DNA from: a virus
Taxonomy: Duplodnaviria; Heunggongvirae; Uroviricota; Caudoviricetes
DNA length: 43,220 nt
IMG/VR virus record: IMGVR_UViG_2526164633_000017
Reading direction: 5' to 3' (one strand)
A model generated the notes under the pieces. It saw nothing but the letters and a program-made list of their open reading frames with translations. It had not been told where the DNA came from and ran no database searches. Below, one piece after another: positions 23,703-41,340 of the stretch (within the stretch, counting starts at the first letter, position 1; each line of letters starts with the position of its first letter). The translations under genes were made by a program, and so were the position numbers.

Positions 23703-23949
23703 GATGTTCTGTCTCGTCTGCCAGCCGCGCGGCACGATTTGCGGCACGGATAGCGGAAAATACCTGCATCGTCTGTTCCTGACCGTGTAACAACCATTCA
23801 GCCGTGTTGCGGGCCTGTTGCTCCGTCTGTAATTCACGGCGCAGCGTCTGGTTATCGTGGCGGGTGCTGTCCAGCCTGTGCCACAACACCCCGGACAAAA
23901 CGGCGGCAAACACGGCTGCCAGCAGTAAACTTTTACTGGCGAAGGTCAT
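23563..23949 (-). CDS. Inner-membrane spanin (Rz-like)
   Basis: 128-aa ORF with N-terminal TM segment (SLLLAAVFAAVLSGVLW) and charged coiled-coil periplasmic domain; directly after endolysin. Confidence 0.75.
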   Translation of the reverse strand: MTFASKSLLLAAVFAAVLSGVLWHRLDSTRHDNQTLRRELQTEQQARNTAEWLLHGQEQTMQVFSAIRAANRAARLADETEHHDAKQKITTAITGDNCSTRPVPAVAADRLRELEKRTRAIGGDPARN

Positions 23950-24451
23950 CCGCCCCCCTGATATTCCAGATAGCCATTTCCACTTCGCGACGGTTCATCA
24001 GTCCTTTCCATTTATGGCCTGCGGCAAACACCCAGCGGGCCATCTGGTCACGCGCTCCGGCGTAATCACCGGCATTGAGTTTTTTCAGCAGCGTTGATTT
24101 ACTGAATGCGGTAACACCGGTGTTGAAAATAAACGTTGCCAGCGCCGTTTTCTGATATGGCGTCAGCGGCACCCTGACAAGACGATCGATTGCCGCATAA
24201 ACCGGTTTTAAATCACTGTCGAGGAGAGCCATACACTCCGCATGGCTGTAACGGCGCATTTCGATATCCGGCCCGGTATGCCCCACACAGACCGAAAGCA
24301 CACCGCCAATATCGCGGTAAGGCATATAAGCGATATTTTCCAGGTGGATCAGAGACTGACGGGTCATTTCCTGATAACCACCCACACCGCCACCGGCAAT
24401 CGTTACAGCCAGCAGTGTGGCTTTCAGTTTTTTTGGTATCCCCGCCATCAT
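23933..24451 (-). CDS. lys: Endolysin, lysozyme-like with N-terminal signal-anchor-release (SAR) type segment
   Basis: 172-aa ORF; Gly/Ala-rich weakly hydrophobic N-terminus (LKATLLAVTIAGGGVGGY) followed by E-x8-D catalytic-type motif (ENIAYMPYRD) typical of T4-lysozyme-type muramidases. Confidence 0.8.
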   Translation of the reverse strand: MMAGIPKKLKATLLAVTIAGGGVGGYQEMTRQSLIHLENIAYMPYRDIGGVLSVCVGHTGPDIEMRRYSHAECMALLDSDLKPVYAAIDRLVRVPLTPYQKTALATFIFNTGVTAFSKSTLLKKLNAGDYAGARDQMARWVFAAGHKWKGLMNRREVEMAIWNIRGADDLRQ

Positions 24452-24521
24452 GCTTCCCTGAAAAAATGCTCTGATGGCAGTCTAAAAAATCAGGTGGCAG
24501 GTGCGGGATTATGGTGACAGG

Positions 24522-24548
24522 AAATAACCGGCAGGATGCCGGTTATTT
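24522..24548 (-). promoter_or_regulatory. Perfect interrupted palindrome AAATAACCGGC-N5-GCCGGTTATTT between C and lys; candidate activator site for late lys promoter and/or transcript end
   Basis: 11-bp arms at 24522-24532 and 24538-24548, overlapping the stop codon of the C-like gene, about 75 bp upstream of lys ATG. Confidence 0.45.
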
Positions 24549-24965
24549 TGGGCTTTCAGGTGAGAACAGATCAGGCTGATGACGTCGTGTATGCAGCTTT
24601 CTCTGGCGGGCAATAATCTGGTAGATCTGCGGCTGGGACAGGCGGTACTGGCGACGCAGTTCTTCCATGTTACGACCATTAAACTGGCAGTAAAGCAAAT
24701 CGTCGCGTAACGCGGTCAGGATCGTATCGCCGCAGGGGATGTAAAACTGCCGTCCACCCAGAAAACAGGACAGGGCAACGGCCTGTTTACGGGCAAGTTC
24801 ACGGGGATTGCTGACGTTCTGGCGTTTCAGTTCGTTTTCCAGAACATCAATCAGATCAACCACCGAACGGGGCCAGCGTGATTCCAGTTCCGGGGCCGGG
24901 ATGTTATCAATATGTCCGATTAACTGGCGAATTGCCGGATCGTGTTCAAATAAATCATGCTGCAT
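24543..24965 (-). CDS. C: Late transcription activator (Mu C-like, Mor/C family)
   Basis: 140-aa ORF; Mor/C family features (C-terminal HTH, QFNGRN motif shared with the Mor-like paralogue at 25944..26333); precedes lysis and morphogenesis genes. Confidence 0.85.
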   Translation of the reverse strand: MQHDLFEHDPAIRQLIGHIDNIPAPELESRWPRSVVDLIDVLENELKRQNVSNPRELARKQAVALSCFLGGRQFYIPCGDTILTALRDDLLYCQFNGRNMEELRRQYRLSQPQIYQIIARQRKLHTRRHQPDLFSPESPK

Positions 24966-25006
24966 ATTTTCCCCCGGTTAACAGACAAAAAGATACACCA
25001 CGGCAC

Positions 25007-25020
25007 TGATGGTTATCAGA
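25007..25020 (-). promoter_or_regulatory. Palindrome CTGATGGTTATCAG upstream of C-like gene; candidate middle-promoter element
   Basis: Dyad symmetric 14-mer in the 112-bp gap upstream of the C-like gene. Confidence 0.3.
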
Positions 25021-25077
25021 ACCACAAGGGCAATCACTTTTATCGCATTAATCAGCGTGGACGGCCCGAAACATTCA

Positions 25078-25308
25078 TCACTGAATTTTCTGTACACAAT
25101 ATTTTTCCTTATAACGTTGACAGTGGTGAAGAATTTCCGGCATATCAACTGACTGCCAGCCTTTCATGTAATAACTGCCGTGGGTGCCATCGTGCCCTGT
25201 GTAATCCATTGGCTTTGGTGGTGGGCCTCCGGCCTCCCGATGTAATACCTCCTGTCGTAAACGTTCACGCCTGCCGAACTGAAAGGACGCATCCCACCCT
25301 TTACCCAT
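25078..25308 (-). CDS. Hypothetical small protein
   Basis: ORF 25078..25362 in track; internal ATG at 25306-25308 avoids most overlap with upstream gene. No recognisable domain. Confidence 0.3.
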   Translation of the reverse strand: MGKGWDASFQFGRRERLRQEVLHREAGGPPPKPMDYTGHDGTHGSYYMKGWQSVDMPEILHHCQRYKEKYCVQKIQ

Positions 25309-25861
25309 GCAGAACCTCCCGACAGGCGCTGGCGAGCAGATCCAGACGGTTAAACCAGCCATTCAGATATTTCCCCTGCGAGGCACTGGATTTGATAATC
25401 CCTGCGTAATAGCGGGAACGACGCAGGAAGCACTGCAACAGCAGCCAGTCAGTATCGGCACGCAGAACGGCTGCGCGTGTGTTTTTACCGACGATGCCAT
25501 CATCATCAACACCTGCTGCCGCCTGGAGGATCTGAATCGCGCGTTTAACACCGTGCTGAACGGCAGCATCAAAAACGAATAAGGAAACGCCATCAGGCCA
25601 TTCGTTACACTTTGCCGCCAGCCAGTAATCACGCCAGTAGATCTGCGCCGCCTGCTCGCGGGTTAAATCCTTAATGCGGGTATCAGGTTTTCCGTCACCG
25701 TTAACATCGGTTTTGCCATCAATAACGCCGTCGCGACGGTCAGAAATACCGTATTTCGTTTCGCCGCCACGGTCGGCAGGATCATTAACATAGCCACCTT
25801 CAACATCAGGGCGTATAACGAAATTCAGCGAATGAAGGAATGCAGGGGAAAACTCAGGCAT
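25301..25861 (-). CDS. Peptidoglycan hydrolase, GH108-like N-terminal domain with C-terminal peptidoglycan-binding-like domain
   Basis: 186-aa ORF with motif EGGYVNDPADRGGETKYGI near N-terminus (characteristic of glycoside hydrolase family 108) and DGIVGKNT-type peptidoglycan-binding region. Confidence 0.7.
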   Translation of the reverse strand: MPEFSPAFLHSLNFVIRPDVEGGYVNDPADRGGETKYGISDRRDGVIDGKTDVNGDGKPDTRIKDLTREQAAQIYWRDYWLAAKCNEWPDGVSLFVFDAAVQHGVKRAIQILQAAAGVDDDGIVGKNTRAAVLRADTDWLLLQCFLRRSRYYAGIIKSSASQGKYLNGWFNRLDLLASACREVLHG

Positions 25862-25913
25862 GTTGCCCTCCTGTCATGAACGTTTTATCGTCACAACAGA
25901 ATATTGAGGGCGT

Positions 25914-25938
25914 AAAAAAAGCCGGATTAACCGGCTTT
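25914..25938 (-). terminator. Rho-independent terminator after mor-like gene (end of early transcript)
   Basis: On transcribed strand: AGCCGG-TTAAT-CCGGCT followed by T7 run, immediately after the mor-like stop. Confidence 0.65.
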
Positions 25939-25943
25939 ACTGT

Positions 25944-26333
25944 TTAAAACAAAGGGGGGGAACACTGACGATACTTTATACGCCGCATTCGTCGGATGGC
26001 TTTATAGACTGTGTTAAATGTCACACCATGACGGATTGCCAGTTCGTGAACATTGCGACCGTTGAAATCATTCCAGATACGCAAATCCCGAATAAGCGAA
26101 TCCAGAACCTGACCGCGTGGAATGTAGACCTGACCGCCGCCCAGATGCTTACAGATAGCCACAACAATCTCCAGTGAATGGGCCGGGTCAACACCTAACC
26201 GGGACAATTCCCCGCGCAGTAAATCGTTCAGCTCCGCCAGCAGTGCCGGAAAGCGTGACGTATCCTCTGCGGGATTGTCAAGATGTGCCAGGATGGTGTC
26301 ATCCTGCAAATCACCAAATAAATCTTCCGTCAT
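25944..26333 (-). CDS. mor: Middle operon regulator (Mu Mor-like, Mor/C family)
   Basis: 129-aa ORF, paralogous to the C-like protein (shared ...GGGQVYIPRG... / ...NDFNGRN... motifs). Confidence 0.85.
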   Translation of the reverse strand: MTEDLFGDLQDDTILAHLDNPAEDTSRFPALLAELNDLLRGELSRLGVDPAHSLEIVVAICKHLGGGQVYIPRGQVLDSLIRDLRIWNDFNGRNVHELAIRHGVTFNTVYKAIRRMRRIKYRQCSPPLF

Positions 26334-26881
26334 TGTGCCATCCTCCGTGTCTTTCTGGCACGGGCATAAGCCGCCGTCATGGCATCATAGCCGCGCAGTT
26401 CACGCCCGGACGGACTGACTGGCAACGGAAGCCCGTGACGGGAAAAGGCTTCACGAATACAGCGGATATGCCACTGCTTGAGAGTTTCGAGAACAATCAA
26501 CAGGGTGTCGCCATGACACCACGCCAGCGTGGAAACACCCTGTCCGCCATTACGTTTCGCCGTCAGGCGCTGAACATATTTATCCAGCGCCACATCACCG
26601 CCATCGGTAATAAAACCGTCTTCTGCCATCTGCTGCCAGACTTTGTATACCTTCTCGCGGGGCGTGACATGCCCCTTAAAGCGGCGACGTGGATGTTTAT
26701 TCAGCTTCTTAAAGCCGCGTTCTTTCATGGCATCGAGCACCTGTTCCAGTTGCGTAACCGTCAGCTCGCGGCAACTGATTTTGCCCGTTTTCTGCATCAG
26801 AAAAGCGCGGTAAGTGTCGTCGTCGAGTTGTAGCTCCCGACGGGCGACATGGATTAATTTAATCAGGGATGTGCGATTCAT
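26330..26881 (-). CDS. gemA: GemA-like early protein (Mu gp16-like)
   Basis: 183-aa ORF immediately upstream of mor, translationally coupled. Confidence 0.7.
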   Translation of the reverse strand: MNRTSLIKLIHVARRELQLDDDTYRAFLMQKTGKISCRELTVTQLEQVLDAMKERGFKKLNKHPRRRFKGHVTPREKVYKVWQQMAEDGFITDGGDVALDKYVQRLTAKRNGGQGVSTLAWCHGDTLLIVLETLKQWHIRCIREAFSRHGLPLPVSPSGRELRGYDAMTAAYARARKTRRMAQ

Positions 26882-26899
26882 GATCGTACCTCCGGAAAG

Positions 26900-26921
26900 A
26901 GGCGGTGCTGCAACACCGCCT
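26900..26921. promoter_or_regulatory. Hairpin AGGCGGTG-N6-CACCGCCT
   Basis: 8-bp perfect inverted repeat located between gemA start and the plus-strand ORF start; no T-run, so not a canonical terminator. Confidence 0.4.
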
Positions 26922-26950
26922 GAATTTACACATCAATCAGAGAGGATTTT

Positions 26951-27217
26951 ATGGAAAATAATGTACAACCTTATGATGTTGCAGGTTATGCGATTGCATC
27001 AGCACTGGTGCGCCTTCTGGTGAAGAAGGCGATCATCACCGCAGAAGAGGGCCAGGCCATTTTCAGCTCTTCAGCAGAGATTTTAAAAGATGCGCCTGCA
27101 ATAAGAACAAGCCGCCGCGAAAACATGCAACTGTCAAAGATCATGGAAGACATTATCAGTTCGTTAGACCCAGATGCTGACGGATCTCAAAAGCCTCAAA
27201 CACATGAGCGTCAGTAA
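26951..27217 (+). CDS. Hypothetical protein encoded opposite to the early operon
   Basis: 88-aa ORF with GAGAGGA Shine-Dalgarno 6 nt upstream of ATG; fills an otherwise non-coding 274-bp gap on the minus strand. Confidence 0.5.
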   Translation: MENNVQPYDVAGYAIASALVRLLVKKAIITAEEGQAIFSSSAEILKDAPAIRTSRRENMQLSKIMEDIISSLDPDADGSQKPQTHERQ

Positions 27218-27458
27218 CAATATCCTGGTCTGATAACCCCAGCCTGCGGCGGATGTACTCCTCGCGGGCTGTTTCATTTTGCAGTGCCACTACTGTTTCC
27301 AGACGATTCATTTCGCGGTTGATAATGTCACGGACTTCTCTGGCGGTGAGATTATGCTTAATACCATATTCAACGATAGCGCGAACACGTTCCAGCATCC
27401 CTTTTTCAGCCATGACGTTATCAATATTAAGGGGAGTAAATTTATCTTCATTGTTCAT
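27156..27458 (-). CDS. Hypothetical early protein
   Basis: 100-aa ORF, translationally coupled to upstream ORF. Confidence 0.55.
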   Translation of the reverse strand: MNNEDKFTPLNIDNVMAEKGMLERVRAIVEYGIKHNLTAREVRDIINREMNRLETVVALQNETAREEYIRRRLGLSDQDIVTDAHVFEAFEIRQHLGLTN

Positions 27459-27778
27459 TTTGCGGCCCTCAGAATAAATTCAGGATAAAATTTCAGACTC
27501 ATTTGCCGTAACACATCCAGTGCAGCAACGGCTGCTGATTTATCGTTGCCATCAGCAATAGCGCGGAGATTTTCAATAATCCAGTGAGGACTCAGTGACT
27601 CAGCAATAATGCCAAACCGGTACGCCATGACCTCATCAATAGCTTTTTCATGAGACGGCTCATATACAAAATTCACAAAGTCATGCACTTCTTTTTTCGG
27701 CAAACCACCGGCAATCAGCAGGGCGGCAAGCTCTTCTGATTTTGAAAATACACCATTATTCATGTCACTCACCTTCAC
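27455..27778 (-). CDS. Hypothetical early protein
   Basis: 107-aa ORF. Confidence 0.55.
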   Translation of the reverse strand: MKVSDMNNGVFSKSEELAALLIAGGLPKKEVHDFVNFVYEPSHEKAIDEVMAYRFGIIAESLSPHWIIENLRAIADGNDKSAAVAALDVLRQMSLKFYPEFILRAAK

Positions 27779-27947
27779 AATTCATGCACGCCGTGTCATC
27801 GCCCATATCGCAGTGGTTACATTTCTGCCCGCCACAATGAGGGCACTCTTTCAGATATTCAGGGGATTCATTACCGCAGGTCGGGCATTCCTGTTTCACC
27901 GTGGTAAATTTCCCCAGCCACGAATACGATGTTTCATTGTTTTCCAT
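27765..27947 (-). CDS. Small Cys-rich zinc-binding protein (four CxxC pairs)
   Basis: 60-aa ORF: CPTC, CPHC, CNHC, CMNC. Confidence 0.55.
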   Translation of the reverse strand: MENNETSYSWLGKFTTVKQECPTCGNESPEYLKECPHCGGQKCNHCDMGDDTACMNCEGE

Positions 27948-28464
27948 TGTTTACCTCCGCCTGTTTTTGCGCCCGGATAAATTCGTCAGAAAGGATTTCA
28001 GTCATGCGGCCCTGTGCGGGAGTCATCCCTGTCATGACGTAAATCACATCACCAACACGGAACCACCGGAGCGGGCCGAATATTGTTGCGCTGAAATCCA
28101 GTCCCAGTGCGGGTAAGAGAGCGTCAGTACGGGCATAAGTGACCGGAATATTCTCCTGCCATATTTTCGCCAGCTCTTTTGACTGCTCCCGCAGATGTGC
28201 AGGAATGCGCGATGTTCTTGGCCTGCAACTGTTACCTGATGCGGAGCGTTGTACAGTCCACAACTCCGGCGAGAAAGGTCGCTCATTCCCCGGAAAATTC
28301 ACGCCATGAAAATGACGCCCACCAATACCTGTGCTGAATACTGACCGGCAACCACAACCCAGAACCTTATCAAGATGGCGGGCTTCTTCGCGTAGTTTCA
28401 GGCAGTCCGCCATAAACTGGTCCCATGCCAGCAGTGCTGCGGGATTTGACGTTTTAAAAAACAT
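27934..28464 (-). CDS. Hypothetical early protein
   Basis: ORF track 27934..28503; ATG at 28462-28464 overlaps the stop of the upstream gene (ATGA) and is the likely start. Confidence 0.55.
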   Translation of the reverse strand: MFFKTSNPAALLAWDQFMADCLKLREEARHLDKVLGCGCRSVFSTGIGGRHFHGVNFPGNERPFSPELWTVQRSASGNSCRPRTSRIPAHLREQSKELAKIWQENIPVTYARTDALLPALGLDFSATIFGPLRWFRVGDVIYVMTGMTPAQGRMTEILSDEFIRAQKQAEVNNGKQ

Positions 28465-28994
28465 CACGCCACCTCCTGCACCGCTGCGGGAGCCGGAGAA
28501 CAATCAAGAATGAGATAACGCAGTACATGGTCGGTGATATTCCAGGCGCTGGAACTGCAAATAAAACGCCCCAGCCGGATATCGATATAAGCCATCACAA
28601 AACGGGGCATTCCCTGTTCGCACATTCTGTTATCCACCTCAGCAACAATGTGAACTGACTCACAGGTCAGCACGCCCGTCGCAAACTCTTTTGCCAGCGC
28701 GGGGATGGTATTACCTTCCACCCAGGGTAATGAGCGACGCCAGTTGCACCACACCGCATCATCAACAGCAGGCTGCTCAGTTGCGTTTCGTCTTACAGGC
28801 GGCGTCGGACGCGGGCGCGGAACGTCATAAAATCCGTTGCATTCGGTGAGCACTCCGGCATCAACCGCATCACGCAGGAAATACACCATTGACGAGGGCA
28901 GCATATTCATTTTTTCAGCCAGAACTCCGCAGGTCAGGCGTCCGTAAGCCCGTAATAATGTGCTGACACCATTCAGAATTTTTGCATCAACCAT
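28464..28994 (-). CDS. Hypothetical early protein
   Basis: 176-aa ORF. Confidence 0.55.
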   Translation of the reverse strand: MVDAKILNGVSTLLRAYGRLTCGVLAEKMNMLPSSMVYFLRDAVDAGVLTECNGFYDVPRPRPTPPVRRNATEQPAVDDAVWCNWRRSLPWVEGNTIPALAKEFATGVLTCESVHIVAEVDNRMCEQGMPRFVMAYIDIRLGRFICSSSAWNITDHVLRYLILDCSPAPAAVQEVA

Positions 28995-29092
28995 GTTTTA
29001 TTCCTCAGTAATCTGTTTCAGGCGCGAGCAATCCCCTGACGTATCGCGCCATAATTAAAAGAATGTGAATTAATTAAATATTAATGGTGGTA

Positions 29093-29617
29093 TTAAATAC
29101 CGGCTTCCTGTTCAAATGGAATAATAGAAAAATCCTCAATGCCTGATTTAACTGTAATTCCGGCAACGCCTGCGACCGCTTTCGGTTCCAGTAAAATCGC
29201 TTCCTTGTTGATTTCCTGCTTCGTGCGAATAAAGCGTTGCAGGCCAAGACGCTCCAGCGTTTCCATCACTGCATCCATACCACGAATACTTACTGATGGC
29301 GGACGGACCCGCCACGATACATCACCGGTGACAAGATTCGCCGTCTTCACTTTGCCGCCGTTCGTCAGTTCGTCGCGGTTCGCTTCACACCATCCCTGAA
29401 CGCCTTTTGAAAGGGTTTCAATATCGGTTTTAATCGGTGCAATCCGGGCTGCAAATTTCTCCGTAATTTCCGCGATGGCATCATTCATTTCCGTTTCCAG
29501 ACGTGATGCTTCGCGCTGTAAATCCCCGATGCGTTTAATATCGGTAATCACCGCATCGCGGTTTTGTGGCACATAAGCCGCTGCGGCACTTTTGATACGT
29601 TTTGCTGGTTTAGCCAT
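29093..29617 (-). CDS. gam: Host-nuclease inhibitor Gam (Mu Gam-like)
   Basis: 174-aa ORF MAKPAKRIKSAAAAYVPQNRD...; size and sequence character match Mu Gam as I recall it. Confidence 0.8.
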   Translation of the reverse strand: MAKPAKRIKSAAAAYVPQNRDAVITDIKRIGDLQREASRLETEMNDAIAEITEKFAARIAPIKTDIETLSKGVQGWCEANRDELTNGGKVKTANLVTGDVSWRVRPPSVSIRGMDAVMETLERLGLQRFIRTKQEINKEAILLEPKAVAGVAGITVKSGIEDFSIIPFEQEAGI

Positions 29618-29636
29618 AAATTAAAGCTCCTGTTAA

Positions 29637-29936
29637 TTAATATCCGCTGTATACAATGCTGGATACAGCTCGATTGCTTAATTCCATCTTTCGGGCAATG
29701 ACATGAATATCCAGTCCTTCTTTATAAAGTTCACGACATAAATATTTGTCGTGTTCACTGATTCGGTATACACACAATGATATTCCGTGCCTTCTGGCAT
29801 GTGCCCGGAGGGCGGTTGTGGCGACTTTCAGTTTTTCCGCCATTTCTTCAATGGTCATTTTCCCGACGTTGGCTTCGATAAATTCCCGGTCTTCGCGTGA
29901 CCAGCGCTTACGATTACACTTCATGTCAGTCACCAT
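29637..29936 (-). CDS. Hypothetical early protein with HTH-like segment
   Basis: 99-aa ORF. Confidence 0.5.
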   Translation of the reverse strand: MVTDMKCNRKRWSREDREFIEANVGKMTIEEMAEKLKVATTALRAHARRHGISLCVYRISEHDKYLCRELYKEGLDIHVIARKMELSNRAVSSIVYSGY

Positions 29937-30356
29937 TCAGTACAGCAGAGGCTCGCGCAGTGATGCCGGAATATGCCGCAGCGATAACTGAACCGCTTTC
30001 AGGGCAAGCGAGGAATAACAGCAGCGCGCCCAGCCTTTTGCCATTAACCGGTAATCGCGCCAGATACGCTGCCACATTTCACGGGCTTCAGGGTCTGATG
30101 CGCAGATGTATTCCCGGTCCATGACGTACTCCCATAAATCCACGTTGAACGCACCGCCAAATGCAATGGCGCGGGATATGCTTTCGCCGCAATAACGTGC
30201 ACAGATGCTGTAATGGTCGAAAGCAATCAGGTAAGTCTTTTCACCACAATCATCAACTTTCCGGGCGCAAATAAACTCGCGTAATTCACCACCGTTGTTA
30301 TTGCGTTCCTGAATTCGGATTAATGCCTGAATTTCATTTCGGATTTTGACGTTCAT
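29937..30356 (-). CDS. Hypothetical early protein
   Basis: 139-aa ORF. Confidence 0.5.
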   Translation of the reverse strand: MNVKIRNEIQALIRIQERNNNGGELREFICARKVDDCGEKTYLIAFDHYSICARYCGESISRAIAFGGAFNVDLWEYVMDREYICASDPEAREMWQRIWRDYRLMAKGWARCCYSSLALKAVQLSLRHIPASLREPLLY

Positions 30357-30376
30357 TGTCAGCGTTCCTTTGCGAA

Positions 30377-30646
30377 TTAATGTTTAACCGCATTCACCGG
30401 ATGTGGTACTAAATCACATTCAGCTTCCATACCCACTTTCTTCATAGTGGTCAGCATCTCATCTTTGGCCTTTTTAATAATTTCAGGAGCCATAGTCAGG
30501 ACGATATTTGCCAGTAAATCATGAGGCCCGATATTTTCCGTTGGCGAGATATCTGCAAGACATGCTTTTGCATCCAGAACTTCTCTGCGCCCATTGCAAC
30601 CGTCACTACTTTCCAGCCATGTAAACTCAAAGATAACTTTTGCCAT
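30377..30646 (-). CDS. Hypothetical early protein
   Basis: 89-aa ORF. Confidence 0.5.
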   Translation of the reverse strand: MAKVIFEFTWLESSDGCNGRREVLDAKACLADISPTENIGPHDLLANIVLTMAPEIIKKAKDEMLTTMKKVGMEAECDLVPHPVNAVKH

Positions 30647-30657
30647 TTTGCGTCTCC

Positions 30658-30912
30658 TTATTGATTCTGAATAACTGCGCTGGCTTTTACCTTCGCGCCT
30701 TTTACCTGCTTAAAGAAAACCGCGCTGCACCACGGACAACATGCAAAGGAGTCCCATACTTCATTTTCTGGTGAGCATTGCGTCATAATTTGCTCTTTGC
30801 ATTTGGGGCAATTAAATGCAGTCAGAGCCACATTGTTATTCTGTACCCGTTTAACCCATTCAATATATTTTTCAGCTTTAGTACACATCGTTATCTCCAG
30901 ATAATCTGGCAA
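30658..30912 (-). CDS. Small zinc-ribbon protein
   Basis: 84-aa ORF with CPKC...CCPWC. Confidence 0.5.
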
Positions 30913-31118
30913 CCATTAAGACGGGCCGTCCATACAGAACGGGCCACCCCGGACTTATGCTCCATAATTCTGACCGCGTTTTTTACCAGTTCCACCGGTG
31001 GGTAAGTGATTTCAAGAATCGGACGCGCCACGCCGAGATATGATTCATTTACATGACTCCCGCGCGCCTGTAACCAGTTCTGCGCATCCGTTGCCATTTT
31101 TATATTTCGGGCCATCAT
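30891..31118 (-). CDS. Hypothetical small protein directly after B (position of Mu kil)
   Basis: 75-aa ORF. Confidence 0.45.
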
Positions 31119-31133
31119 AATTTCTTCTCCTTC

Positions 31134-32072
31134 TTAATTACGCAGCAGCGTTGAAATATCAACGTCCAGGTCTAATTCACGGAAAGCCTGACGCAGATAA
31201 TCTTCGTTAACACGCTCACCTTTACCGTGAGCCGTCATGGCGGCAAGGCGAAGTGAATGATTCAGAATGCGAAGCGCACCTGGTTTCTGCGCAATCTGCT
31301 GTAATAACTCCAGTTCTTTTTCACCGTTAATCTGCCAGGCATCCGCAATAGCTTTTACATCGGCTTTTTTGGTTTTATTAATTGCAGTGCGCTTTGCAAT
31401 ACGGGAAAACAGACGGGCAAATTCAACCGTTCTGTTACCCCCCGTCATATTTGAATAAACCCGGTGATTTCCCATCAGCACAAGGCCAATACGGGTTGAT
31501 TCCTGTAACAGGCGGAGTTCTTCCAGAACCTCGGCACCAAGATGATCAGCTTCGTCGATGATAACCAGCCCCTGTGTACCTTCAAGGCGACGTCGCAGGG
31601 CGCGGGAGAGCGGCCCTTTACGGCGTGGTGCGTCATTCATTCCCAGCTCAAACGCCAGTTCAGTAAGACATTCCAGAACGCTGGCACAGGATGGCGTAAT
31701 GGTGATCATCCAGACATTGTTATTGGTGCGGCGATATTCACGGGCCGCTTCGGTTTTACCCACACCAGGATTGCCACATACAACAGCAATACTTTCAGTC
31801 AGGCTGGCAAAACGCATACTTGTCCAGATTTGTTTTACCGTCTGCGTTTCCACAAAGCGGGGCGGCTCAGGTAGTTCTGCAACTGCATGATATTTTTCCA
31901 GCCAGCGTTGCAGAATTTGTGAAACACGCTCGTTATCCCCGTTGTACTTATCATTGATAAAACTACTGATAGTTCCGGTAGAAAGCCCGCTCTCAAGAGC
32001 AATTTGTTTAAAGGTGGTTTCTTCATTTTCTACAAGCGTGCGCAGTTCTGCGCGAATATCGGAAATATTCAT
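31134..32072 (-). CDS. B: DNA transposition ATPase (MuB-like, AAA+)
   Basis: 312-aa ORF with Walker A GNPGVGKTE and Walker B VIIDEADHL; N-terminal HTH; immediately after transposase gene. Confidence 0.9.
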   Translation of the reverse strand: MNISDIRAELRTLVENEETTFKQIALESGLSTGTISSFINDKYNGDNERVSQILQRWLEKYHAVAELPEPPRFVETQTVKQIWTSMRFASLTESIAVVCGNPGVGKTEAAREYRRTNNNVWMITITPSCASVLECLTELAFELGMNDAPRRKGPLSRALRRRLEGTQGLVIIDEADHLGAEVLEELRLLQESTRIGLVLMGNHRVYSNMTGGNRTVEFARLFSRIAKRTAINKTKKADVKAIADAWQINGEKELELLQQIAQKPGALRILNHSLRLAAMTAHGKGERVNEDYLRQAFRELDLDVDISTLLRN

Positions 32073-32110
32073 CTGAATAACCTCGTAATTAAATTTTGTT
32101 TAAACGTTAA

Positions 32111-34204
32111 TTAAATGGCTTTTTTACGTCTGTTCTGTTCCAGAATATCCAGCGAATGATTCAGATATTCATCACGCTCAGTTTCGTATTCATCATCATG
32201 CTCTTCCTCACACCTCAACGGCTGAACGGTCACCACATTACCAACAGGGCGATAAACATTATCCAGCCAGGGTTCTATCGTTTTTTGTTCAATAACCTGA
32301 ATACCTTCATCCTCAGCATCACGTATTTTTTCCTCAGCACGCTTGCGCATTCCTTTAATACGTTGCTGTTGTTTGTGATATTCAGCCGTAACAGGAAAGG
32401 CTGCGCGTTTATTGCCGTTCCATATCGCCTCACAGATAAAGCTACCGTCCTTACGGCGTACCGTAATTCGCTCGGCATCGTGAATGTCATAGCTGATAAG
32501 TACCTTGCGACCATGTTCATCACGTAGCTCTGGCGCGTAGTAAATATTGTTCAGCCACTGGATTTCGCAGCGTCTTACCGGACGCTCCACCATCGGGCGG
32601 AACATGTCACGCAGCTCAATATCACTCAGCCACTCAATTTCAGTGTCTTCTTCCGCTAAGCGTTTTTTTCTGAACTCTGCCGGGCTGTAATGTTTTCCGT
32701 TTGGTTTCATCGGCAATTCAGAATGTGGGCGGTTGTTGTACCACTCCACCCCCTCACGGATAGCCTCAATCAGTTCTGACCAAGACGGCAGCTCGCGCAT
32801 TGCGGCTTTCTGACGGGCGCTCAGTGGCTTGTCCTGTTGCAGGGCATTAAACGCTGAACGCAGATCACGATTAAGTACTCGCAACGATTCCCGGTCAGCC
32901 CCCTTGCCGAAATAGGTGCGATACCTCCTTGCTATACGCATCGGTAACGTCCGGTTCAGGCGCTCAATAATGCCGCGTCCCTGCGGATTTCCCGCAATAC
33001 CAGTGGGGTGGTTAATCCCCAGGCGGGGCAGAATCCCGACGATCTCTTTATCCAGCATATCTGCCGTTTCACCGGAACCATTATCCGAGTAATACAGGAA
33101 TGGTTTTCCGTGATTGCGAATGCCGTGTTGTATCGCCCCGGCAACAGCGAACACGTTCTCCGCAAGATCAAGACTCCAGCCAACCACAAACCGGGTTCCA
33201 CCGTCGATCACAAACGTAACTTCCGGTGAAAATGGACGCCCGTGAACCGGATGCGCACATTTCAGCTTCATACCGTGACCGTCACCAATCCAGACATAAT
33301 TCACCGGCATAGCTGTCCAGTCGCGGCGGGTGAATCCTTCAAGCTGACGGTATTCACTGCCGGTAACGCGCCCTTTTTGTTTCACCACTTCCGGCAGTTT
33401 TTTCATGGCATACCGGACAACATCATAGGAAGGCATCACCTCCAGCATGTATGGTTCGTCCGCATGGCGACGCTGCCAATCAGCGACAAAATCCTCGTAT
33501 GCTTCTGACATAGGCCTGCCGTTAGCCTGACGATACTGCGCCAGAAATTCAGGCAGCCAGCTAATTTCTTCCGGTTTTATTTCGTCGCGCTTTCCTGGTG
33601 CCAGTAACAGCAATCGTTCTGCGGCATTCTGTGCTTTGTTAAACGCAGCTATCCAACGTTTGAGCGTAATTGCGCTCAGAGTTCGCTCTTTCCCTTTACG
33701 GGCATTAGCAGTAATGACCAAAGATTCCAGGCGTTCTTCCAGGTTACCCTGCGCTAACCGCGACACAATAAAACGTATAGCGCTGGCACAACTGAATCCC
33801 GGCTCCTGGCTAATTCGTAGAACTTCACAGACAAGAGCAATACGCGCTTCTGCAACTTTACGTTGATTTTCCGTAAGCGCATTCAGACGCTCTTCTACCA
33901 ATTGTGGCGAACCGCGATATGCCTCAACAGGCTGTACAACATTTTGTTTGCGTTCACGCTTTACAGGAGGCTGGGTAGTTATCTCCTGCGGGGCGGTTGC
34001 CATCAGTTGAGCTACATGGCGCTCACGTAACGCCCGTTGTGTAACCGGAGGGAGGCAGTCGATGCTGTATTCAATGGTTTTTGAACCCGCACGTTTGCGC
34101 CTGAAATGCTCAGATGAGGCCAGTTTCCTTATGGAATACCGCACCCCTTGCGCAGTTCCCGGCATACCCGGTAGCCCTACAAGCTCATTAACTGACACAA
34201 ACAT
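32111..34204 (-). CDS. A: DDE transposase (MuA family)
   Basis: 697-aa ORF; N-terminal winged-helix-like DNA-binding region, DDE-type core (IGDGHG...), C-terminus ...DEYETERDEYLNHSLDILEQNRRKKAI. Confidence 0.9.
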   Translation of the reverse strand: MFVSVNELVGLPGMPGTAQGVRYSIRKLASSEHFRRKRAGSKTIEYSIDCLPPVTQRALRERHVAQLMATAPQEITTQPPVKRERKQNVVQPVEAYRGSPQLVEERLNALTENQRKVAEARIALVCEVLRISQEPGFSCASAIRFIVSRLAQGNLEERLESLVITANARKGKERTLSAITLKRWIAAFNKAQNAAERLLLLAPGKRDEIKPEEISWLPEFLAQYRQANGRPMSEAYEDFVADWQRRHADEPYMLEVMPSYDVVRYAMKKLPEVVKQKGRVTGSEYRQLEGFTRRDWTAMPVNYVWIGDGHGMKLKCAHPVHGRPFSPEVTFVIDGGTRFVVGWSLDLAENVFAVAGAIQHGIRNHGKPFLYYSDNGSGETADMLDKEIVGILPRLGINHPTGIAGNPQGRGIIERLNRTLPMRIARRYRTYFGKGADRESLRVLNRDLRSAFNALQQDKPLSARQKAAMRELPSWSELIEAIREGVEWYNNRPHSELPMKPNGKHYSPAEFRKKRLAEEDTEIEWLSDIELRDMFRPMVERPVRRCEIQWLNNIYYAPELRDEHGRKVLISYDIHDAERITVRRKDGSFICEAIWNGNKRAAFPVTAEYHKQQQRIKGMRKRAEEKIRDAEDEGIQVIEQKTIEPWLDNVYRPVGNVVTVQPLRCEEEHDDEYETERDEYLNHSLDILEQNRRKKAI

Positions 34205-34206
34205 TT

Positions 34207-34443
34207 TTATGCCACCTTACGAGCGTAACGGCTGGGCCAGATCTCCTCCGGCGCAACACCAATAGCATCAGCAATAATGCGCTCATATTTTGGGCATTTG
34301 CGGTACAGGGCATTCTTTAAAGAATCCTGGTTTAAACCGGCTTCAATGGACAGAGAGCGTAAAGTAAAACCTTTTACATGCACCGCCGCGACAACATGCG
34401 CGGGGTGCCAGTCCTGTTTAACAACTTCATTTATAGACATCAT
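34207..34443 (-). CDS. ner: Ner-like DNA-binding regulator (Nlp/Ner family)
   Basis: ORF track 34207..34515; conserved Ner-type sequence starts at the internal ATGATG (34438-34443): MSINEVVKQDWHPAHVVAAV...IIADAIGVAPEEIWPSRY. Confidence 0.8.
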   Translation of the reverse strand: MMSINEVVKQDWHPAHVVAAVHVKGFTLRSLSIEAGLNQDSLKNALYRKCPKYERIIADAIGVAPEEIWPSRYARKVA

Positions 34444-34623
34444 TCGTTTATCCTTAAAAGTTATCTGTGCGGATAACACCGCCGGATAATCTCTGCGGAT
34501 AAAGTATTGATCCACATGTGGCGCATGTAAAGCAAAAATTTGATTTTCTTTTGCCTGATGTGGATCATCTGTGTTTTCTATTGAAATTATCCTTTTGTAT
34601 CAATTAGATAAGAGGAAAGAAAA
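34444..34623. promoter_or_regulatory. Divergent early promoter/operator region between ner and repressor gene
   Basis: Three direct repeats GCGGATAA/CCGGATAA at 34469, 34482 and 34495 (13-bp spacing); palindrome TTATC-N6-GATAA (34461-34476); inverted pair TGATCCACA (34508-34516) / TGTGGATCA (34559-34567); 10-bp palindrome CCACATGTGG (34511-34520). Confidence 0.6.
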
Positions 34624-35169
34624 ATGGATAAGCTGAAAGGAAAGTCACTTTCTTTGCCGGAAGTGACAAAAGAAAGTATCCCGGAGCGTTTGAGAGAATT
34701 AATTGGAAAAAGAAGTGTAAGGGCTGCTGCGAAAGATTGGGGGTTGTCTTTTTCTACTTTAAACAATTACCTGACGCGAGGTACTGAACCTTCACTCAGT
34801 GTGGCTCGGCAGATAGCTGCAATTGAAGGGGTTACTATCGAATGGATATGTGGATCACATGATGATTCATATGAGAATCACCCAATTTCAACTAACACGC
34901 ATAATGAGAATACAAAACTCATTATGAACATCATTAACGCCTTGGATGCAAAGGATATTGAGCGACTATCTAAGACTCTTGCCCTCAATGGTGCTAAGTA
35001 TCTGACTCAAATGTTGGAACCCGAAAATCAAGGCTTACTGCGTCTTGAAGGACGAAAACGTGTCGCCGCGCTGCTATTAGATGATTTACCTGATGAGCGT
35101 ATCAGAGAGATTTTGGAAGAAATTGAGAGCAGCAAACTCTCAAGTAGTGTAAAATCGAGAGCGGGCTAG
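34624..35169 (+). CDS. c: Prophage repressor (Mu c-like)
   Basis: 181-aa ORF divergent from ner-A-B operon; HTH-like segment (VRAAAKDWGLSFSTLNNYLTRG); RBS AGGAAAG upstream. Confidence 0.75.
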   Translation: MDKLKGKSLSLPEVTKESIPERLRELIGKRSVRAAAKDWGLSFSTLNNYLTRGTEPSLSVARQIAAIEGVTIEWICGSHDDSYENHPISTNTHNENTKLIMNIINALDAKDIERLSKTLALNGAKYLTQMLEPENQGLLRLEGRKRVAALLLDDLPDERIREILEEIESSKLSSSVKSRAG

Positions 35170-35183
35170 TTCAATTAGCCCGC
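35161..35183 (+). terminator. Hairpin at end of repressor gene (weak terminator candidate)
   Basis: GCGGGCTA-N7-TAGCCCGC overlapping the stop codon; followed by only a short T-run. Confidence 0.35.
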
Positions 35184-35233
35184 AGTGAACAGATTTTGAA
35201 GGCATTTAAAATGCTAAAATTGCAGTAACGCGT

Positions 35234-35389
35234 AGTATCAAATATTTTTTCGTTTTTAGCTTTCTTTGCGATGGTAGTATCAAATCGCATGTTGTGCGCA
35301 TAACACTGTTTTATGTCATAACTGTTTGTTTTATCCCATCAAATCCCGTTTAATCCACTTTCCTCCCGGATTTTTCACCAGTATCAAAT
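35234..35389. repeat. Three direct repeats (G)TAGTATCAAAT near the Mu-like prophage end; candidate transposase end-binding sites (L1-L3-like)
   Basis: Copies at 35234-35243, 35277-35286 and 35380-35389; distances from the inferred end (about 35395) are roughly 10, 115 and 155 bp, resembling the L1/L2/L3 spacing of Mu attL. Confidence 0.55.
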
Positions 35390-35421
35390 AATTTACCTCT
35401 CTATACGACTATGAGGAGAAA

Positions 35422-35727
35422 TTGCTTATTGCCAGATGGGAACTGACAGCAGAACAGGCTGTTACACAGCAGTTAAAAAATGAGGTGTCAAAAGGAAAAC
35501 TGATTGACACCGGGTTCTGTATTTTTGCCCTCAGTAAGCTGGCAATGGCGTTATCCAGTACGCTTGATTCCATCCCTTTATCCATGCAGCGACAGTTTCC
35601 TGATTTAACACCGCGCCATCTTGACCATCTGAAAACCCTTATTGCGAAGGGGGCAAATCAGTGTGCGCGGGCAGGGGATAAATTACCGGATTTACTCGAT
35701 GAATATATCAGAGCAACAACTGAATAA
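35422..35727 (+). pseudogene. nu1: Lambdoid terminase small subunit (Nu1-like), C-terminal half only; 5' part displaced by Mu-like prophage insertion
   Basis: Reading frame matches the C-terminal half of lambda Nu1 as I recall it (...FCIFALSKLA...LDSIPLSMQRQFP...LLDEYI...); frame hits a stop at 35389-35391 inside the terminal repeat region; no ATG start (track start is TTG). Confidence 0.65.
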
Positions 35728-37627
35728 TATGATGGCTGCCGTTTCGGTTGCGCTGCAGCCTCTGGTCAGGGTTGTACCAATGACGGCAGTTGAATGGGCT
35801 GATCAAAATTATTATCTGCCTAAAGAATCTTCATATGGTGAGGGAGAATGGAAAACGCTGCCATTCCAGATCGCCATTATGAACTGTATGGGTAACGACC
35901 AGGTTCGCACGGTTAACCTGATTAAATCTGCCCGTGTTGGCTATACAAAGATGTTGCTGGGGGTGGTCGGGTATTTTATTGAGCATAAATCCCGAAACAG
36001 TCTGCTTTTTCAGCCCACGGATTCTGCCGCTGAAGATTTTATGAAGTCTCACGTGGAGGCGACGATTCGGAACGTGCCATGCCTGAAAGACCTTTCCCCA
36101 TGGCTGGGTCGTAAACATCGTGACAATACTCTCACGCTGAAACGCTTTTCATCGGGCGTCGGTTTCTGGTGCCTGGGCGGCGCTGCCGCCAAAAACTACC
36201 GTGAAAAATCCGTGGACGTGGTCTGCTATGACGAACTTTCCTCGTTCGAGCCGGATGTCGAAAAAGAGGGCTCGCCAACCCTGCTGGGGGATAAGCGTAT
36301 TGAGGGGTCGGTGTGGCCAAAATCCATTCGCGGCTCGACGCCTAAAATCAAAGGCACCTGCCAGATCGAAAAAGCCGCTAACGAGTCGGCGCATTTTATG
36401 CGTTTTTATGTGCCCTGCCCGCACTGTGGGGAGGAGCAGTATCTGAAATTTGGCGATGAGTCCACGCCTTTTGGGCTTAAATGGGAGAAGGACAGCCCTG
36501 AAAGTGTTTTCTACCTCTGTGAACATCATGGCTGCGTGATCCATCAGTCTGAGCTTGACCAGAGCAACGGGCGGTGGATCTGTGAAAACACGGGCATGTG
36601 GACCCGTGACGGTCTGACGTTTTTCAGCGCCCGGGGTGATGAAATTCCGCCGCCGCGCTCCATCATGTTCCATATCTGGACGGCGTACAGTCCGTTCACC
36701 ACCTGGGTACAGATTGTCTATGACTGGCTGGATGCACTGAAAGATCCCAACGGCCTGAAAACCTTTGTGAACACCACGCTGGGCGAGACCTGGGAAGAGG
36801 CCGTGGGCGAAAAACTCGATCACCAGGTACTGATGGATAAGGTGGTGCGTTACACGGCGGCGGTGCCTGCCCGGGTGGTTTATCTGACGGCGGGCATTGA
36901 CTCGCAGCGAAACCGTTTTGAGATGTATGTCTGGGGATGGGCTCCGGGAGAGGAAGCCTTTCTGGTGGATAAAATCATCATTATGGGGCGTCCTGATGAG
37001 GAAGAGACGCTGTTACGTGTGGATGCGGCGATCAACAAAAAATACCGCCATGCGGATGGCACCGAAATGACTATTTCCCGTGTCTGCTGGGACACCGGGG
37101 GGATCGATGGTGAAATTGTTTATCAGAGATCAAAAAAACACGGTGTTTTCCGGGTGCTGCCGGTAAAAGGCGCATCTGTCTATGGCAAGCCGGTGATCAC
37201 CATGCCAAAAACCCGCAATCAGCGGGGCGTGTATCTGTGTGAAGTGGGAACGGATACCGCAAAAGAAATTCTCTATGCCCGTATGAAAGCCGATCCCACG
37301 CCTGCGGATGAAGCCACGTCGTATGCCATCCGTTTTCCTGATGATCCGGAGATTTTTTCGCAGACAGAGGCGCAGCAACTGGTGGCGGAAGAGCTGGTGG
37401 AGAAGTGGGAAAAAGGAAAGATGCGTCTGCTGTGGGATAACAAAAAGCGGCGTAACGAAGCGCTGGACTGCCTGGTGTATGCCTACGCGGCATTACGTGT
37501 GTCCGTGCAACGCTGGCAGCTTGATCTGGCTGTACTGGCAAAATCCCGGGAAGAAGAGACGACCCGGCCAACCCTGAAAGAACTGGCAGCGAAGCTGTCC
37601 GGAGGAGTGAATGGTTACAGTCGCTGA
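35699..37627 (+). CDS. A: Lambdoid terminase large subunit (gpA-like)
   Basis: ORF track 35642..37627; ATG at 35699 gives MNISEQQLNNMMAAVS...TAVEWADQNYYLPKES..., 642 aa, lambda A-like throughout. Confidence 0.9.
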   Translation: MNISEQQLNNMMAAVSVALQPLVRVVPMTAVEWADQNYYLPKESSYGEGEWKTLPFQIAIMNCMGNDQVRTVNLIKSARVGYTKMLLGVVGYFIEHKSRNSLLFQPTDSAAEDFMKSHVEATIRNVPCLKDLSPWLGRKHRDNTLTLKRFSSGVGFWCLGGAAAKNYREKSVDVVCYDELSSFEPDVEKEGSPTLLGDKRIEGSVWPKSIRGSTPKIKGTCQIEKAANESAHFMRFYVPCPHCGEEQYLKFGDESTPFGLKWEKDSPESVFYLCEHHGCVIHQSELDQSNGRWICENTGMWTRDGLTFFSARGDEIPPPRSIMFHIWTAYSPFTTWVQIVYDWLDALKDPNGLKTFVNTTLGETWEEAVGEKLDHQVLMDKVVRYTAAVPARVVYLTAGIDSQRNRFEMYVWGWAPGEEAFLVDKIIIMGRPDEEETLLRVDAAINKKYRHADGTEMTISRVCWDTGGIDGEIVYQRSKKHGVFRVLPVKGASVYGKPVITMPKTRNQRGVYLCEVGTDTAKEILYARMKADPTPADEATSYAIRFPDDPEIFSQTEAQQLVAEELVEKWEKGKMRLLWDNKKRRNEALDCLVYAYAALRVSVQRWQLDLAVLAKSREEETTRPTLKELAAKLSGGVNGYSR

Positions 37628-37817
37628 ACTGCAGGCGCTGCGTCAGGCGCGCCTTGATTTATTAACCGGTAAACGGGTGGTGTCTGTCCAGAAAGATGGT
37701 CGCAGAATTGAATATACGGCGGCTTCTCTGGATGAGCTTAACCGGGCGATCAATGATGCGGAGTCGGTACTGGGGACAACCCGACGTCGCCGTCGTCCGC
37801 TGGGAGTGAGGTTATGA
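37611..37817 (+). CDS. W: Head-tail joining protein (gpW-like)
   Basis: 68-aa ORF ...LLTGKRVVSVQKDGRRIEYTAASL... Confidence 0.85.
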   Translation: MVTVAELQALRQARLDLLTGKRVVSVQKDGRRIEYTAASLDELNRAINDAESVLGTTRRRRRPLGVRL

Positions 37818-39406
37818 AACGAACGCCTGTCCTGATTGATGTGAACGGCGTTCCGCTTCGTGAGAGTCTCAGCTACAACGGGGGCGGCGCAGGATTTGGC
37901 GGGCAAATGGCGGAGTGGTTGCCACCGGCGCAGAGTGTCGATGCGGCCCTGCTGCCCGCGTTGCGTCTGGGGAATGCCCGGGCAGATGATCTGGTGCGCA
38001 ATAACGGAATAGCGGCTAATGCGGTGGCCCTGCATAAGGATCACATTGTCGGGCATATGTTTCTGATCAGCTACCGTCCGAACTGGCGCTGGCTGGGGAT
38101 GCGGGAGACCGCAGCAAAAAGCTTTGTCGATGAGGTGGAGGCGGCCTGGTCGGAATACGCAGAAGGGATGTCTGGCGAGATCGACGTGGAAGGAAAACGC
38201 ACATTTACGGAGTTTATCCGTGAAGGTGTTGGCGTTCATGCGTTTAACGGCGAAATCTTTGTGCAGCCGGTCTGGGATACGGAAACCACGCAGTTATTCC
38301 GTACGCGTTTTAAAGCCGTGAGTCCGAAACGGGTGGACACGCCAGGACACGGTATGGGGAACCGTTTTCTGCGGGCCGGGGTGGAGGTCGATCGATATGG
38401 CCGTGCCGTTGCGTACCATATCTGTGAGGATGATTTTCCTCGCTCCGGGAGTGGACGATGGGAACGGATCCCGCGTGAACTTCCCACCGGGCGTCCGGCC
38501 ATGCTGCATATTTTCGAGCCGGTGGAGGACGGGCAGACCCGTGGGGCTAATCAGTTTTACAGCGTCATGGAACGGCTGAAGATGCTGGATTCCCTGCAGG
38601 CAACACAGCTTCAGTCGGCCATTGTGAAAGCCATGTATGCAGCGACGATTGAAAGTGAACTTGATACCGAAAAGGCCTTTGAATATATCGCCGGCGCGCC
38701 ACAGGAGCAGAAGGATAATCCGCTTATTAATATTCTGGAGAAGTTCTCCAGCTGGTATGACACGAATAACGTGACACTGGGCGGTGTCAAAATTCCGCAC
38801 CTTTTCCCTGGTGATGATCTGAAACTACAGACTGCGCAGGATTCAGACAATGGATTTTCTGCGCTTGAACAGGCGCTGCTGCGGTATATCGCCGCCGGTC
38901 TTGGCGTTTCCTACGAACAGTTGTCCCGTGATTACTCGAAGGTCAGTTATTCAAGTGCCAGGGCCTCTGCCAATGAGTCGTGGCGCTATTTTATGGGGCG
39001 GCGAAAATTTATTGCGGCCCGGCTGGCCACGCAGATGTTTTCCTGCTGGCTGGAAGAGGCACTTCTTCGGGGGATTATCCGTCCGCCACGGGCGCGTTTT
39101 GATTTTTATCAGGCGCGATCAGCCTGGTCACGGGCAGAGTGGATTGGTGCCGGAAGAATGGCCATTGACGGGCTCAAGGAGGTTCAGGAATCGGTGATGC
39201 GCATTGAGGCCGGACTGAGCACGTATGAGAAAGAGCTGGCGCTGATGGGCGAGGATTATCAGGACATTTTCCGCCAGCAGGTCAGGGAATCTGCAGAGCG
39301 GCAAAAAGCCGGACTCTCACGTCCGGTGTGGATAGCGCAGGCGTATCAGCAGCAGATAGCGGAGAGTCGCAGGCCGGAAGAGGAGACAACACCACGTGAG
39401 ACGTAA
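37814..39406 (+). CDS. B: Lambdoid portal protein (gpB-like)
   Basis: 530-aa ORF following W. Confidence 0.9.
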   Translation: MKRTPVLIDVNGVPLRESLSYNGGGAGFGGQMAEWLPPAQSVDAALLPALRLGNARADDLVRNNGIAANAVALHKDHIVGHMFLISYRPNWRWLGMRETAAKSFVDEVEAAWSEYAEGMSGEIDVEGKRTFTEFIREGVGVHAFNGEIFVQPVWDTETTQLFRTRFKAVSPKRVDTPGHGMGNRFLRAGVEVDRYGRAVAYHICEDDFPRSGSGRWERIPRELPTGRPAMLHIFEPVEDGQTRGANQFYSVMERLKMLDSLQATQLQSAIVKAMYAATIESELDTEKAFEYIAGAPQEQKDNPLINILEKFSSWYDTNNVTLGGVKIPHLFPGDDLKLQTAQDSDNGFSALEQALLRYIAAGLGVSYEQLSRDYSKVSYSSARASANESWRYFMGRRKFIAARLATQMFSCWLEEALLRGIIRPPRARFDFYQARSAWSRAEWIGAGRMAIDGLKEVQESVMRIEAGLSTYEKELALMGEDYQDIFRQQVRESAERQKAGLSRPVWIAQAYQQQIAESRRPEEETTPRET

Positions 39407-40901: not shown

Positions 40902-40937
40902 AGTCAGTGCTGACCATCAACAGGAGGTTTTTACAAT

Positions 40938-41283: not shown

Positions 41284-41340
41284 CACGTTATCAGGCCACC
41301 GCGGTGGCCTGACTGATTTCTGAATGAAAGGAACTGATTT

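Follow-up and report, generated by a model that had tools for sequence, protein, structure and literature searches.

Positions 27156 to 31118 of the viral DNA stretch IMGVR_UViG_2526164633_000017 (IMG/VR; Caudoviricetes), whose full length of 43,220 nucleotides (nt) is called the window below, hold a block of small genes between the genes B and gemA. Judged by sequence comparison, this block is the semi-essential early (SE or SEE) region of a transposable prophage of the Mu family (Muvirus), encoded on the minus strand. We regard the whole explanation given here, including the mechanism proposed for the region, as highly probable. It should be emphasized that the block is already known: its exact sequence is public, and as a region of a classic model phage family it has been catalogued. 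Each of its proteins can be found on public contigs, from roughly 250 for some to at least 1000 for others, where the copies are named almost without exception 'hypothetical protein' or 'Mu prophage protein'.

The segment 26300-32100 showed 100% nucleotide identity to the Yersinia phages vB_YpM_5 and vB_YpM_6 (MT374853/4; described in PMC10434027) and to prophages in several Escherichia coli genomes (e.g. strain FDAARGOS_1059), in which the block is identical, without differences; phage Mu matched the same segment with 97% nucleotide identity over 90% of the query. B, the block, gemA and mor are all located on the minus strand, the block being situated between B on one side and gemA and mor on the other. 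The kil gene stands directly after B, a Mu-type gam is present, and the orthologues of the small early open reading frames (ORFs) gp6-gp14 are collinear with those of Mu. For nine of the eleven minus-strand proteins the counterparts in Mu (kil, gp6, gp8, gp9, gam, gp11, gp12, gp13 and gp14) show 80-100% identity, and the remaining two are an ORF14-like protein, 99% identical to ORF14 of the Shigella phage SfMu, and an allele of the gp7 family. Furthermore, the gene order agrees with the annotated records of Mu, SfMu and D108 and with RefSeq prophages, and the RefSeq annotation of the identical prophages gives the same genes.

A first-pass annotation of the window, made from its letters and a list of its ORFs, had described about twelve small early genes here, tightly coupled ORFs of 60-189 amino acids (aa) between B and gemA in a Mu-type layout and with no recognisable enzymatic domain. 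This description proved to be right, with the addition that the block does not merely resemble the Mu semi-essential early region but is that region. Eleven consecutive minus-strand ORFs of 60-189 aa were found, and the twelfth gene is the convergent plus-strand gp15 in the 274-nt gap before gemA. No enzymatic domain was detected in the proteins of the block with Pfam, NCBIfam, PHROGs and PADLOC. The individual genes had been called unassigned; this does not apply to kil and gam, which are 100% identical to the Mu genes, and it is correct for the rest, which are unassigned in Mu too. Likewise, the possibility raised there that all ORFs might match characterised Mu proteins of benign function was half borne out, as all of them match Mu-family proteins and most of these are uncharacterised.

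The genes are packed with spacings of -14 to +20 nt, the exceptions being 98 nt after gam and 274 nt before gemA. That several of the small ORFs are chance ORFs in non-coding filler can hardly be credited. It is true that gp6 is left without annotation in some RefSeq prophages, and that the early annotations of Mu showed frameshift errors and many alternative ORFs here, but every ORF of the block has a full-length match to a PHROG family (E-values 1e-35 to 1e-106), a GGAG-type ribosome-binding site stands in front of nearly all the starts, and the homologues remain open at 31-52% aa identity. The longest ORFs of gp6, gp12 and the ORF14-like gene begin at TTG or GTG codons upstream of the ATG annotated in Mu and RefSeq, and the sizes counted from the annotated ATG are the likely ones (76, 176 and 102 aa, respectively). 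The features of the block and of its borders are collected in Table 1.

Table 1. Genes of the semi-essential early block and its borders, with their occurrence among the 44 close relatives (see below)
Gene	Positions	Strand	Product and size	Identity to named phages	PHROG	Class	Present in	Median pairwise identity
B	31134-32072	-	MuB AAA+ transposition protein; upstream boundary	99% MuB
kil (Mu gp5)	30891-31118	-	host-killing / septation-inhibiting peptide, 75 aa	100% Mu Kil	2743, E = 2.8e-43	backbone	40/44	83%
gp6 (E5)	30658-30912	-	CxxC...CxxC, zinc-ribbon-like; 84 aa from TTG, 76 aa from ATG at 30888	80% Mu gp6; 100% SfMu ORF6	3786, E = 1.3e-40	optional	24/44	77%
gp7-family allele	30377-30646	-	89 aa		2230, E = 4e-35	special case	42/44	33%
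gp8 (E7)	29937-30356	-	139 aa	96% Mu gp8	3690, E = 3.7e-97	backbone	37/44	84%
gp9 (E8)	29637-29936	-	99 aa (RefSeq start 29924, 95 aa)	99% Mu gp9	323, E = 6.1e-29	backbone	44/44	85%
gam (Mu gp10)	29093-29617	-	Ku-like DNA-end-binding protein blocking RecBCD, 174 aa	100% Mu Gam	491	backbone	43/44	94%
gp11	28464-28994	-	176 aa	99% Mu gp11	1949	backbone	32/44	86%
gp12	27934-28503	-	189 aa from TTG at 28503, 176 aa from annotated ATG at 28464	96% Mu gp12	2314, E = 5e-80	optional	14/44	96%
gp13 (E14)	27765-27947	-	four conserved CxxC pairs, 60 aa	97% Mu gp13		optional	16/44	93%
ORF14-like	27455-27778	-	extra gene, predicted helical; 107 aa from GTG, 102 aa from ATG at 27763	99% SfMu ORF14	1988, E = 1.8e-49	optional	20/44	47%
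gp14 (E15)	27156-27458	-	100 aa	99% Mu gp14; 36% D108 gp14	6075	optional	18/44	42%
gp15	26951-27217	+	88 aa	95% Mu gp15	8747, E = 1.3e-60
gemA (gp16)	26330-26881	-	downstream boundary	96% Mu GemA	286
mor	25944-26333	-	comes after gemA	92% Mu Mor

Backbone genes and exchangeable genes

The block has the same order, strand and spacing as the corresponding part of Mu (NC_000929 / AF083977; kil-gp14 are Mup05-Mup15), Kil and Gam being fully identical, gp8, gp9, gp11, gp12, gp13, gp14 and gp15 95-99% identical and gp6 80% identical. Mu differs from it in having another gp7 interior and in lacking the ORF14-like gene, and the only two DNA segments of the block without homology to Mu are found at these two places (30372-30626 and 27462-27753, respectively). 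SfMu (NC_027382) shares ORF14 (99%) with the block, and its gp6, gp13, gp14 and gp15 are identical; however, it carries a Mu-type gp7, an extra DUF5420 gene (ORF11) between gam and gp11, and an interrupted gp12 frame. In D108 (NC_013594) the order is the same and Kil, gp8, Gam and gp13 are 100% identical, whereas gp7 and gp14 are 39% and 36% identical, respectively, and both the ORF14-like gene and gp15 are absent.

In order to describe this variation on a broader set, 80 related loci were gathered with Gam as the anchor and scored for gene presence and identity; the 44 loci with Gam at least 90% identical were taken as close relatives, for which the presence of each gene and the median pairwise identity were determined (Table 1). 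On this comparison, kil, gp8, gp9, gam, gp11 and gemA are the conserved backbone of the region, and gp6, the gp7 interior, gp12-gp13, the ORF14-like gene and gp14-gp15 are exchangeable or optional cassettes. The families of the small early proteins other than Kil and Gam are narrow orphan families and, as far as the homologues retrieved indicate, restricted to enterobacterial Mu-like phages.

This pattern of variability is compatible with a cargo for host interference or counter-defence. Accordingly worded as an explanation of the block, gp6, gp7, gp12-gp13, the ORF14-like gene and gp14-gp15 would form an island whose products inhibit host anti-phage systems, the gp7 alleles being diversified in an arms race against host targets that vary. 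We find this rather doubtful. The genes in question are optional or diverged among the close relatives, with median identities of 33% for gp7, 47% for the ORF14-like gene and 42% for gp14 as compared with 83-94% in kil, gp8, gp9 and gam, and the exchange falls exactly at gene boundaries. Additionally, the same slots in relatives hold other cassettes, including one MazG-like nucleoside triphosphate pyrophosphohydrolase. The variable genes are taken to be early-expressed, and their products are small and non-enzymatic, as are many known anti-defence proteins. However, the same variability would result if neutral accessory genes recombined in a mosaic fashion, no paper was found that gives the variable genes such a role, and their products show no similarity to annotated anti-defence PHROGs, to families in Pfam, NCBIfam or PADLOC, or to entries of the PDB. 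PADLOC gave a single sub-threshold helix-turn-helix match with the proteins of the block and nothing else, and there was no anti-defence annotation among the PHROG matches, the libraries searched being general ones and none of them dedicated to anti-defence proteins. The suggestion of the first-pass annotation that anti-defence functions are most likely to be located here thus gained no direct support, since neither a defence or anti-defence annotation nor a match to a solved structure was obtained; what speaks for it indirectly is the variable or accessory character of gp6, gp7 and gp12-gp15 among the relatives of Mu. The sequence and profile searches recovered the kil and gam families; the defence families and the PDB yielded nothing significant, and the AlphaFold models (gp8 and gp13) were unusable.

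The gp7 gene stands apart from both classes. Its position is fixed, two genes after kil, and the 42 copies among the 44 close relatives comprise 30 distinct sequences. The interior of the gene in the window (30372-30626) has no nucleotide homology to Mu. All alleles share the N-terminal motif MAKVI[FI]E[FI], a length of about 87-89 aa and a terminal His, and at least three allele classes have nothing in common beyond the first 8 residues, the length and this His. The homologue search gave 7 database clusters, and a HMMER scan with the gp7 profile over 1.84 billion representatives retrieved 12 proteins only, all of 47-89 aa and none of them a fusion. From these sequences gp7 looks like one family, the interior of which is swapped at gene boundaries. 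Two results weigh against a kinship with Mu gp7: BLASTP found no similarity between the gp7 of the window and that of Mu, and the PHROG cross-match was weak (E = 0.009). An unrelated replacement cassette was nevertheless rejected, as intermediate alleles connect this gp7 to Mu gp7 and the termini and the length are common. That the family is a dedicated arms-race factor of Mu-like phages, each allele class neutralising a different host protein or defence variant, seems unlikely to us; if it were true, the specificity of the present allele would differ from that of Mu. Being near-universal yet hypervariable, gp7 is the one mildly interesting lead of the region and the best candidate to be tested first.

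It was also observed that B is only 40-44% identical to the B of the window in eleven loci of our set (L005, L009, L030, L035, L036, L038, L039, L041-L043 and L046), and the flanking early genes of these loci are about 80-100% identical. Since B is so divergent amid well conserved early genes, B itself seems to be exchanged between alleles.

The small proteins of the block

The two proteins with an assigned role are located in the backbone. Kil matches the PHROG family 'Kil protein for bacterial septation inhibition' over its full length, and its start, provided with a GGAG ribosome-binding site, lies 15 nt after B. Gam matches Pfam PF07352 (Phage_Mu_Gam) above the cut-off (E = 4.1e-42). The sot function is generally attributed to gam. 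Mu-type Gam has been described as a dimer which binds DNA ends and stops the loading of RecBCD, and in a Pseudomonas Mu-like phage the homologues of Gam and GemA each confer sensitivity to Gabija (PMC12407980).

Among the other backbone proteins, gp8 is, by its distribution, a core gene of enterobacterial Mu-like phages, its 24 database clusters coming from Escherichia or Salmonella in every case where an organism was named. It was also considered as a zinc protein, which it probably is not: this copy is Cys-rich, but C52 is its sole invariant Cys, C56 being almost so. Its AlphaFold2 model, built on an alignment of 13 sequences, had a predicted local distance difference test (pLDDT) score of 45 and was unusable.

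A helix-turn-helix (HTH) protein had been suggested at the position of gp9. The family matched, PHROG 323, is a 'transcriptional regulator, D5-like', whereas the HTH matches in Pfam and NCBIfam, at residues ~22-53 and ~64-98, were all below threshold. Since these matches cover two segments, gp9 is a probable tandem HTH DNA-binding protein. When the gp9 family profile was compared with the PDB, a weak similarity to resolvase-type HTH was seen (best E = 0.037). Its backbone neighbour gp11 matches Pfam PF25754 (Gp11_C, E = 1.3e-40), and one database source labels it 'Prophage DNA binding protein'. Searches with the single sequences of gp8, gp11 and gp12 against solved structures gave nothing below E = 0.06, and profile searches against the PDB with the ORF14-like, gp11, gp14 and gp9 families gave no significant match.

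In the optional part, the start of gp12 overlaps the stop of gp11 by 1 nt, and the start of gp13 overlaps the end of gp12 by 14 nt. The protein gp13 has four CxxC pairs (CPTC, CPHC, CNHC and CMNC), the eight Cys of which are invariant or nearly so across a narrow family of 14 database clusters, and it probably has two zinc sites. In gp6 the motif is CxxC-x19-CxxC, and all four Cys are retained in a homologue of 31% identity. The best Pfam match of gp13 was DnaJ_CXXCXGXG (E = 0.0015, 19.2 bits against a cut-off of 32.7), its zinc-ribbon matches being sub-threshold too, and the best match of gp6 to a Pfam zinc family was zf-LITAF-like (E = 0.012, 16.2 bits against a cut-off of 23.8). Since all the Pfam zinc-ribbon matches are below the curated thresholds, both proteins are regarded as putative zinc binders; of the two zinc-ribbon proteins announced earlier, the conserved Cys motifs stand (four CxxC pairs in gp13, two in gp6). 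The AlphaFold2 model of gp13 (alignment of 11 sequences) had a mean pLDDT of 50, which was unusable, and no fold could be assigned.

Two observations on relatives concern these Cys-rich proteins. In loci without gp6 (e.g. L029, L032, L033 and L035) a remnant of the gp6 5' end (MPDYL...) is present upstream of gp7, which fits a deletion of gp6 sparing the part that overlaps the end of kil. The gp13 module also occurs as the C-terminus of a 231-aa protein (PHROG 6418) in L015 (6090-6848), and in L012, L019 and L045; the L015-type fusion replaces gp12 and gp13 and has an N-terminal domain of about 170 aa. The fusion of the module to this domain suggests that gp13 works jointly with the product of the gene immediately before it.

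The ORF14-like gene corresponds to a 292-bp insertion relative to Mu (27462-27753), which is placed between gp13 and gp14 at a shared ATGAAYAATG start motif. No match to it was detected in Mu or D108, and the SfMu paper describes ORF14 as unique to SfMu. On the opposite strand, gp15 overlaps the 3' end of the convergent gp14 by 62 nt. Its ORF is open in distant relatives at 52% aa identity, and the substitutions by codon position (28/24/38) are enriched at the third one; thus gp15 looks like a real opposite-strand gene, which is possibly expressed on its own.

Between gp14 and the ribosome-binding site of gemA, at about 26900-26925 on the minus strand, there is a GC-rich hairpin of 9 bp (GGCGGUGUU-GCAG-CACCGCC), after which comes UCUUUCC. 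The surrounding 291 nt fold better than shuffled sequences (z = -2.25), and the hairpin could function in attenuation or in RNA stability. An Rfam scan of 24000-35500 gave nothing near a gathering score.

Proposed function of the region

We propose that the block is the distal part of a long early operon starting upstream of ner-A-B, which would be transcribed into one polycistronic mRNA and translated via start and stop codons that overlap or lie close together. This operon reading is based on the gene order, the spacing, the established biology of Mu and the lack of an excess of promoter-like sites, these being no commoner than in shuffled sequence; terminator-like sites were about 2 standard deviations above the shuffle mean. 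By analogy with Mu, early co-transcription from Pe and dispensability for plaque formation may be expected. The assigned products are Kil, which kills the host or prevents septation, and Gam, a Ku-like dimer by which linear DNA ends are capped and RecBCD is kept away. The nine other proteins, short and non-enzymatic, would most likely be stoichiometric binders: gp9 probably binds DNA, gp11 may do so on the weaker grounds of its name in one database source, and the rest would bind proteins; gp6 and gp13 would be small metal-binding modules of Cys4 and Cys8 type, respectively. In gp7, gp8, gp12, the ORF14-like protein and gp14 no recognisable fold was detected. Together, the nine proteins would tune host physiology and Mu replication in lytic growth, and they would be dispensable for plaques.

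The SE region of Mu contains 14 ORFs, few of them with an assigned phenotype, and it is connected with the killing of the host: after its deletion in MuBam the infected cells survived at 100% instead of about 20%, the recovery of lysogens also reaching 100% (PMC3325207). Besides kil, gam and gem, the functions arm, cim and sot have been mapped to this region (PMC4553209). A rival explanation is that the unassigned ORFs encode Mu-internal accessory functions, i.e. arm (amplified replication), cim (immunity control) and a lig-like activity, and modulate the transposition, the replication and the repressor of Mu, and not the defences of the host. We consider it possible, but less likely than not. 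The mapping of arm, cim and sot speaks for it, as does the conservation of gp8, gp9 and gp11, backbone genes which are kept together with the transposition machinery; regulatory roles would also suit gp9, which looks DNA-binding, and gp11, which is named so by one source. On the other hand, no retrieved paper ties the arm, cim or lig-like phenotypes to particular ORFs, and gp12-gp15 and the ORF14-like gene are missing from many functional relatives, therefore they cannot be core replication factors.

Several points weigh against the Mu semi-essential early explanation as we have formulated it. The functions given for the nine proteins are inferred from their sequences, and the literature search yielded no paper in which gp6-gp9 or gp11-gp15 have an assigned function. 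For the zinc-ribbon and HTH proteins we depend on motif conservation and on sub-threshold Pfam matches, and both AlphaFold models were unusable (pLDDT 45 for gp8 and 50 for gp13). That the genes are transcribed as a single early operon is carried over from the biology of Mu, and the gaps of 98 and 274 nt together with the convergent gp15 show that coupling is neither uniform nor complete across the block.

The roles of the nine small early proteins of Mu are a long-standing question, and the block adds no new gene to their list. What it offers is the division into backbone and cassettes and the pattern of gp7, which may serve as a practical guide for testing the early genes of Mu in host interference or counter-defence.

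Other parts of the window

A 186-aa endolysin-like muramidase with Glyco_hydro_108 and PG_binding_3 domains is encoded on the minus strand between mor and C (25301-25861). Among catalogued phages its DNA occurs in vB_YpM_5/6 only, Mu, SfMu and D108 being without it. A lysozyme gene distinct from it is present at 23933-24451.

On the other side of the block, the transposase A ORF has 697 aa. The immunity and left-end part (34205-35404) includes a ner-like ORF (34207-34515) and a 181-aa repressor-like ORF (34624-35169). At the nucleotide level it matches none of Mu, D108 and SfMu, and vB_YpM_5/6 only in part, with 55% coverage and 91% identity. The prophage is probably of a different immunity type.

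Beyond the Mu-type left end, the sequence from 35405 to 43220 carries lambdoid prophage head genes with 99.8% identity to E. coli prophages, beginning with the large terminase subunit (35642-37627), followed by the portal, an S49 peptidase, the major capsid protein and FI. Because these lambdoid head genes adjoin the Mu-type left end, the Mu-type prophage appears to be inserted in another prophage near its small-terminase gene, with the junction near 35404/35405.

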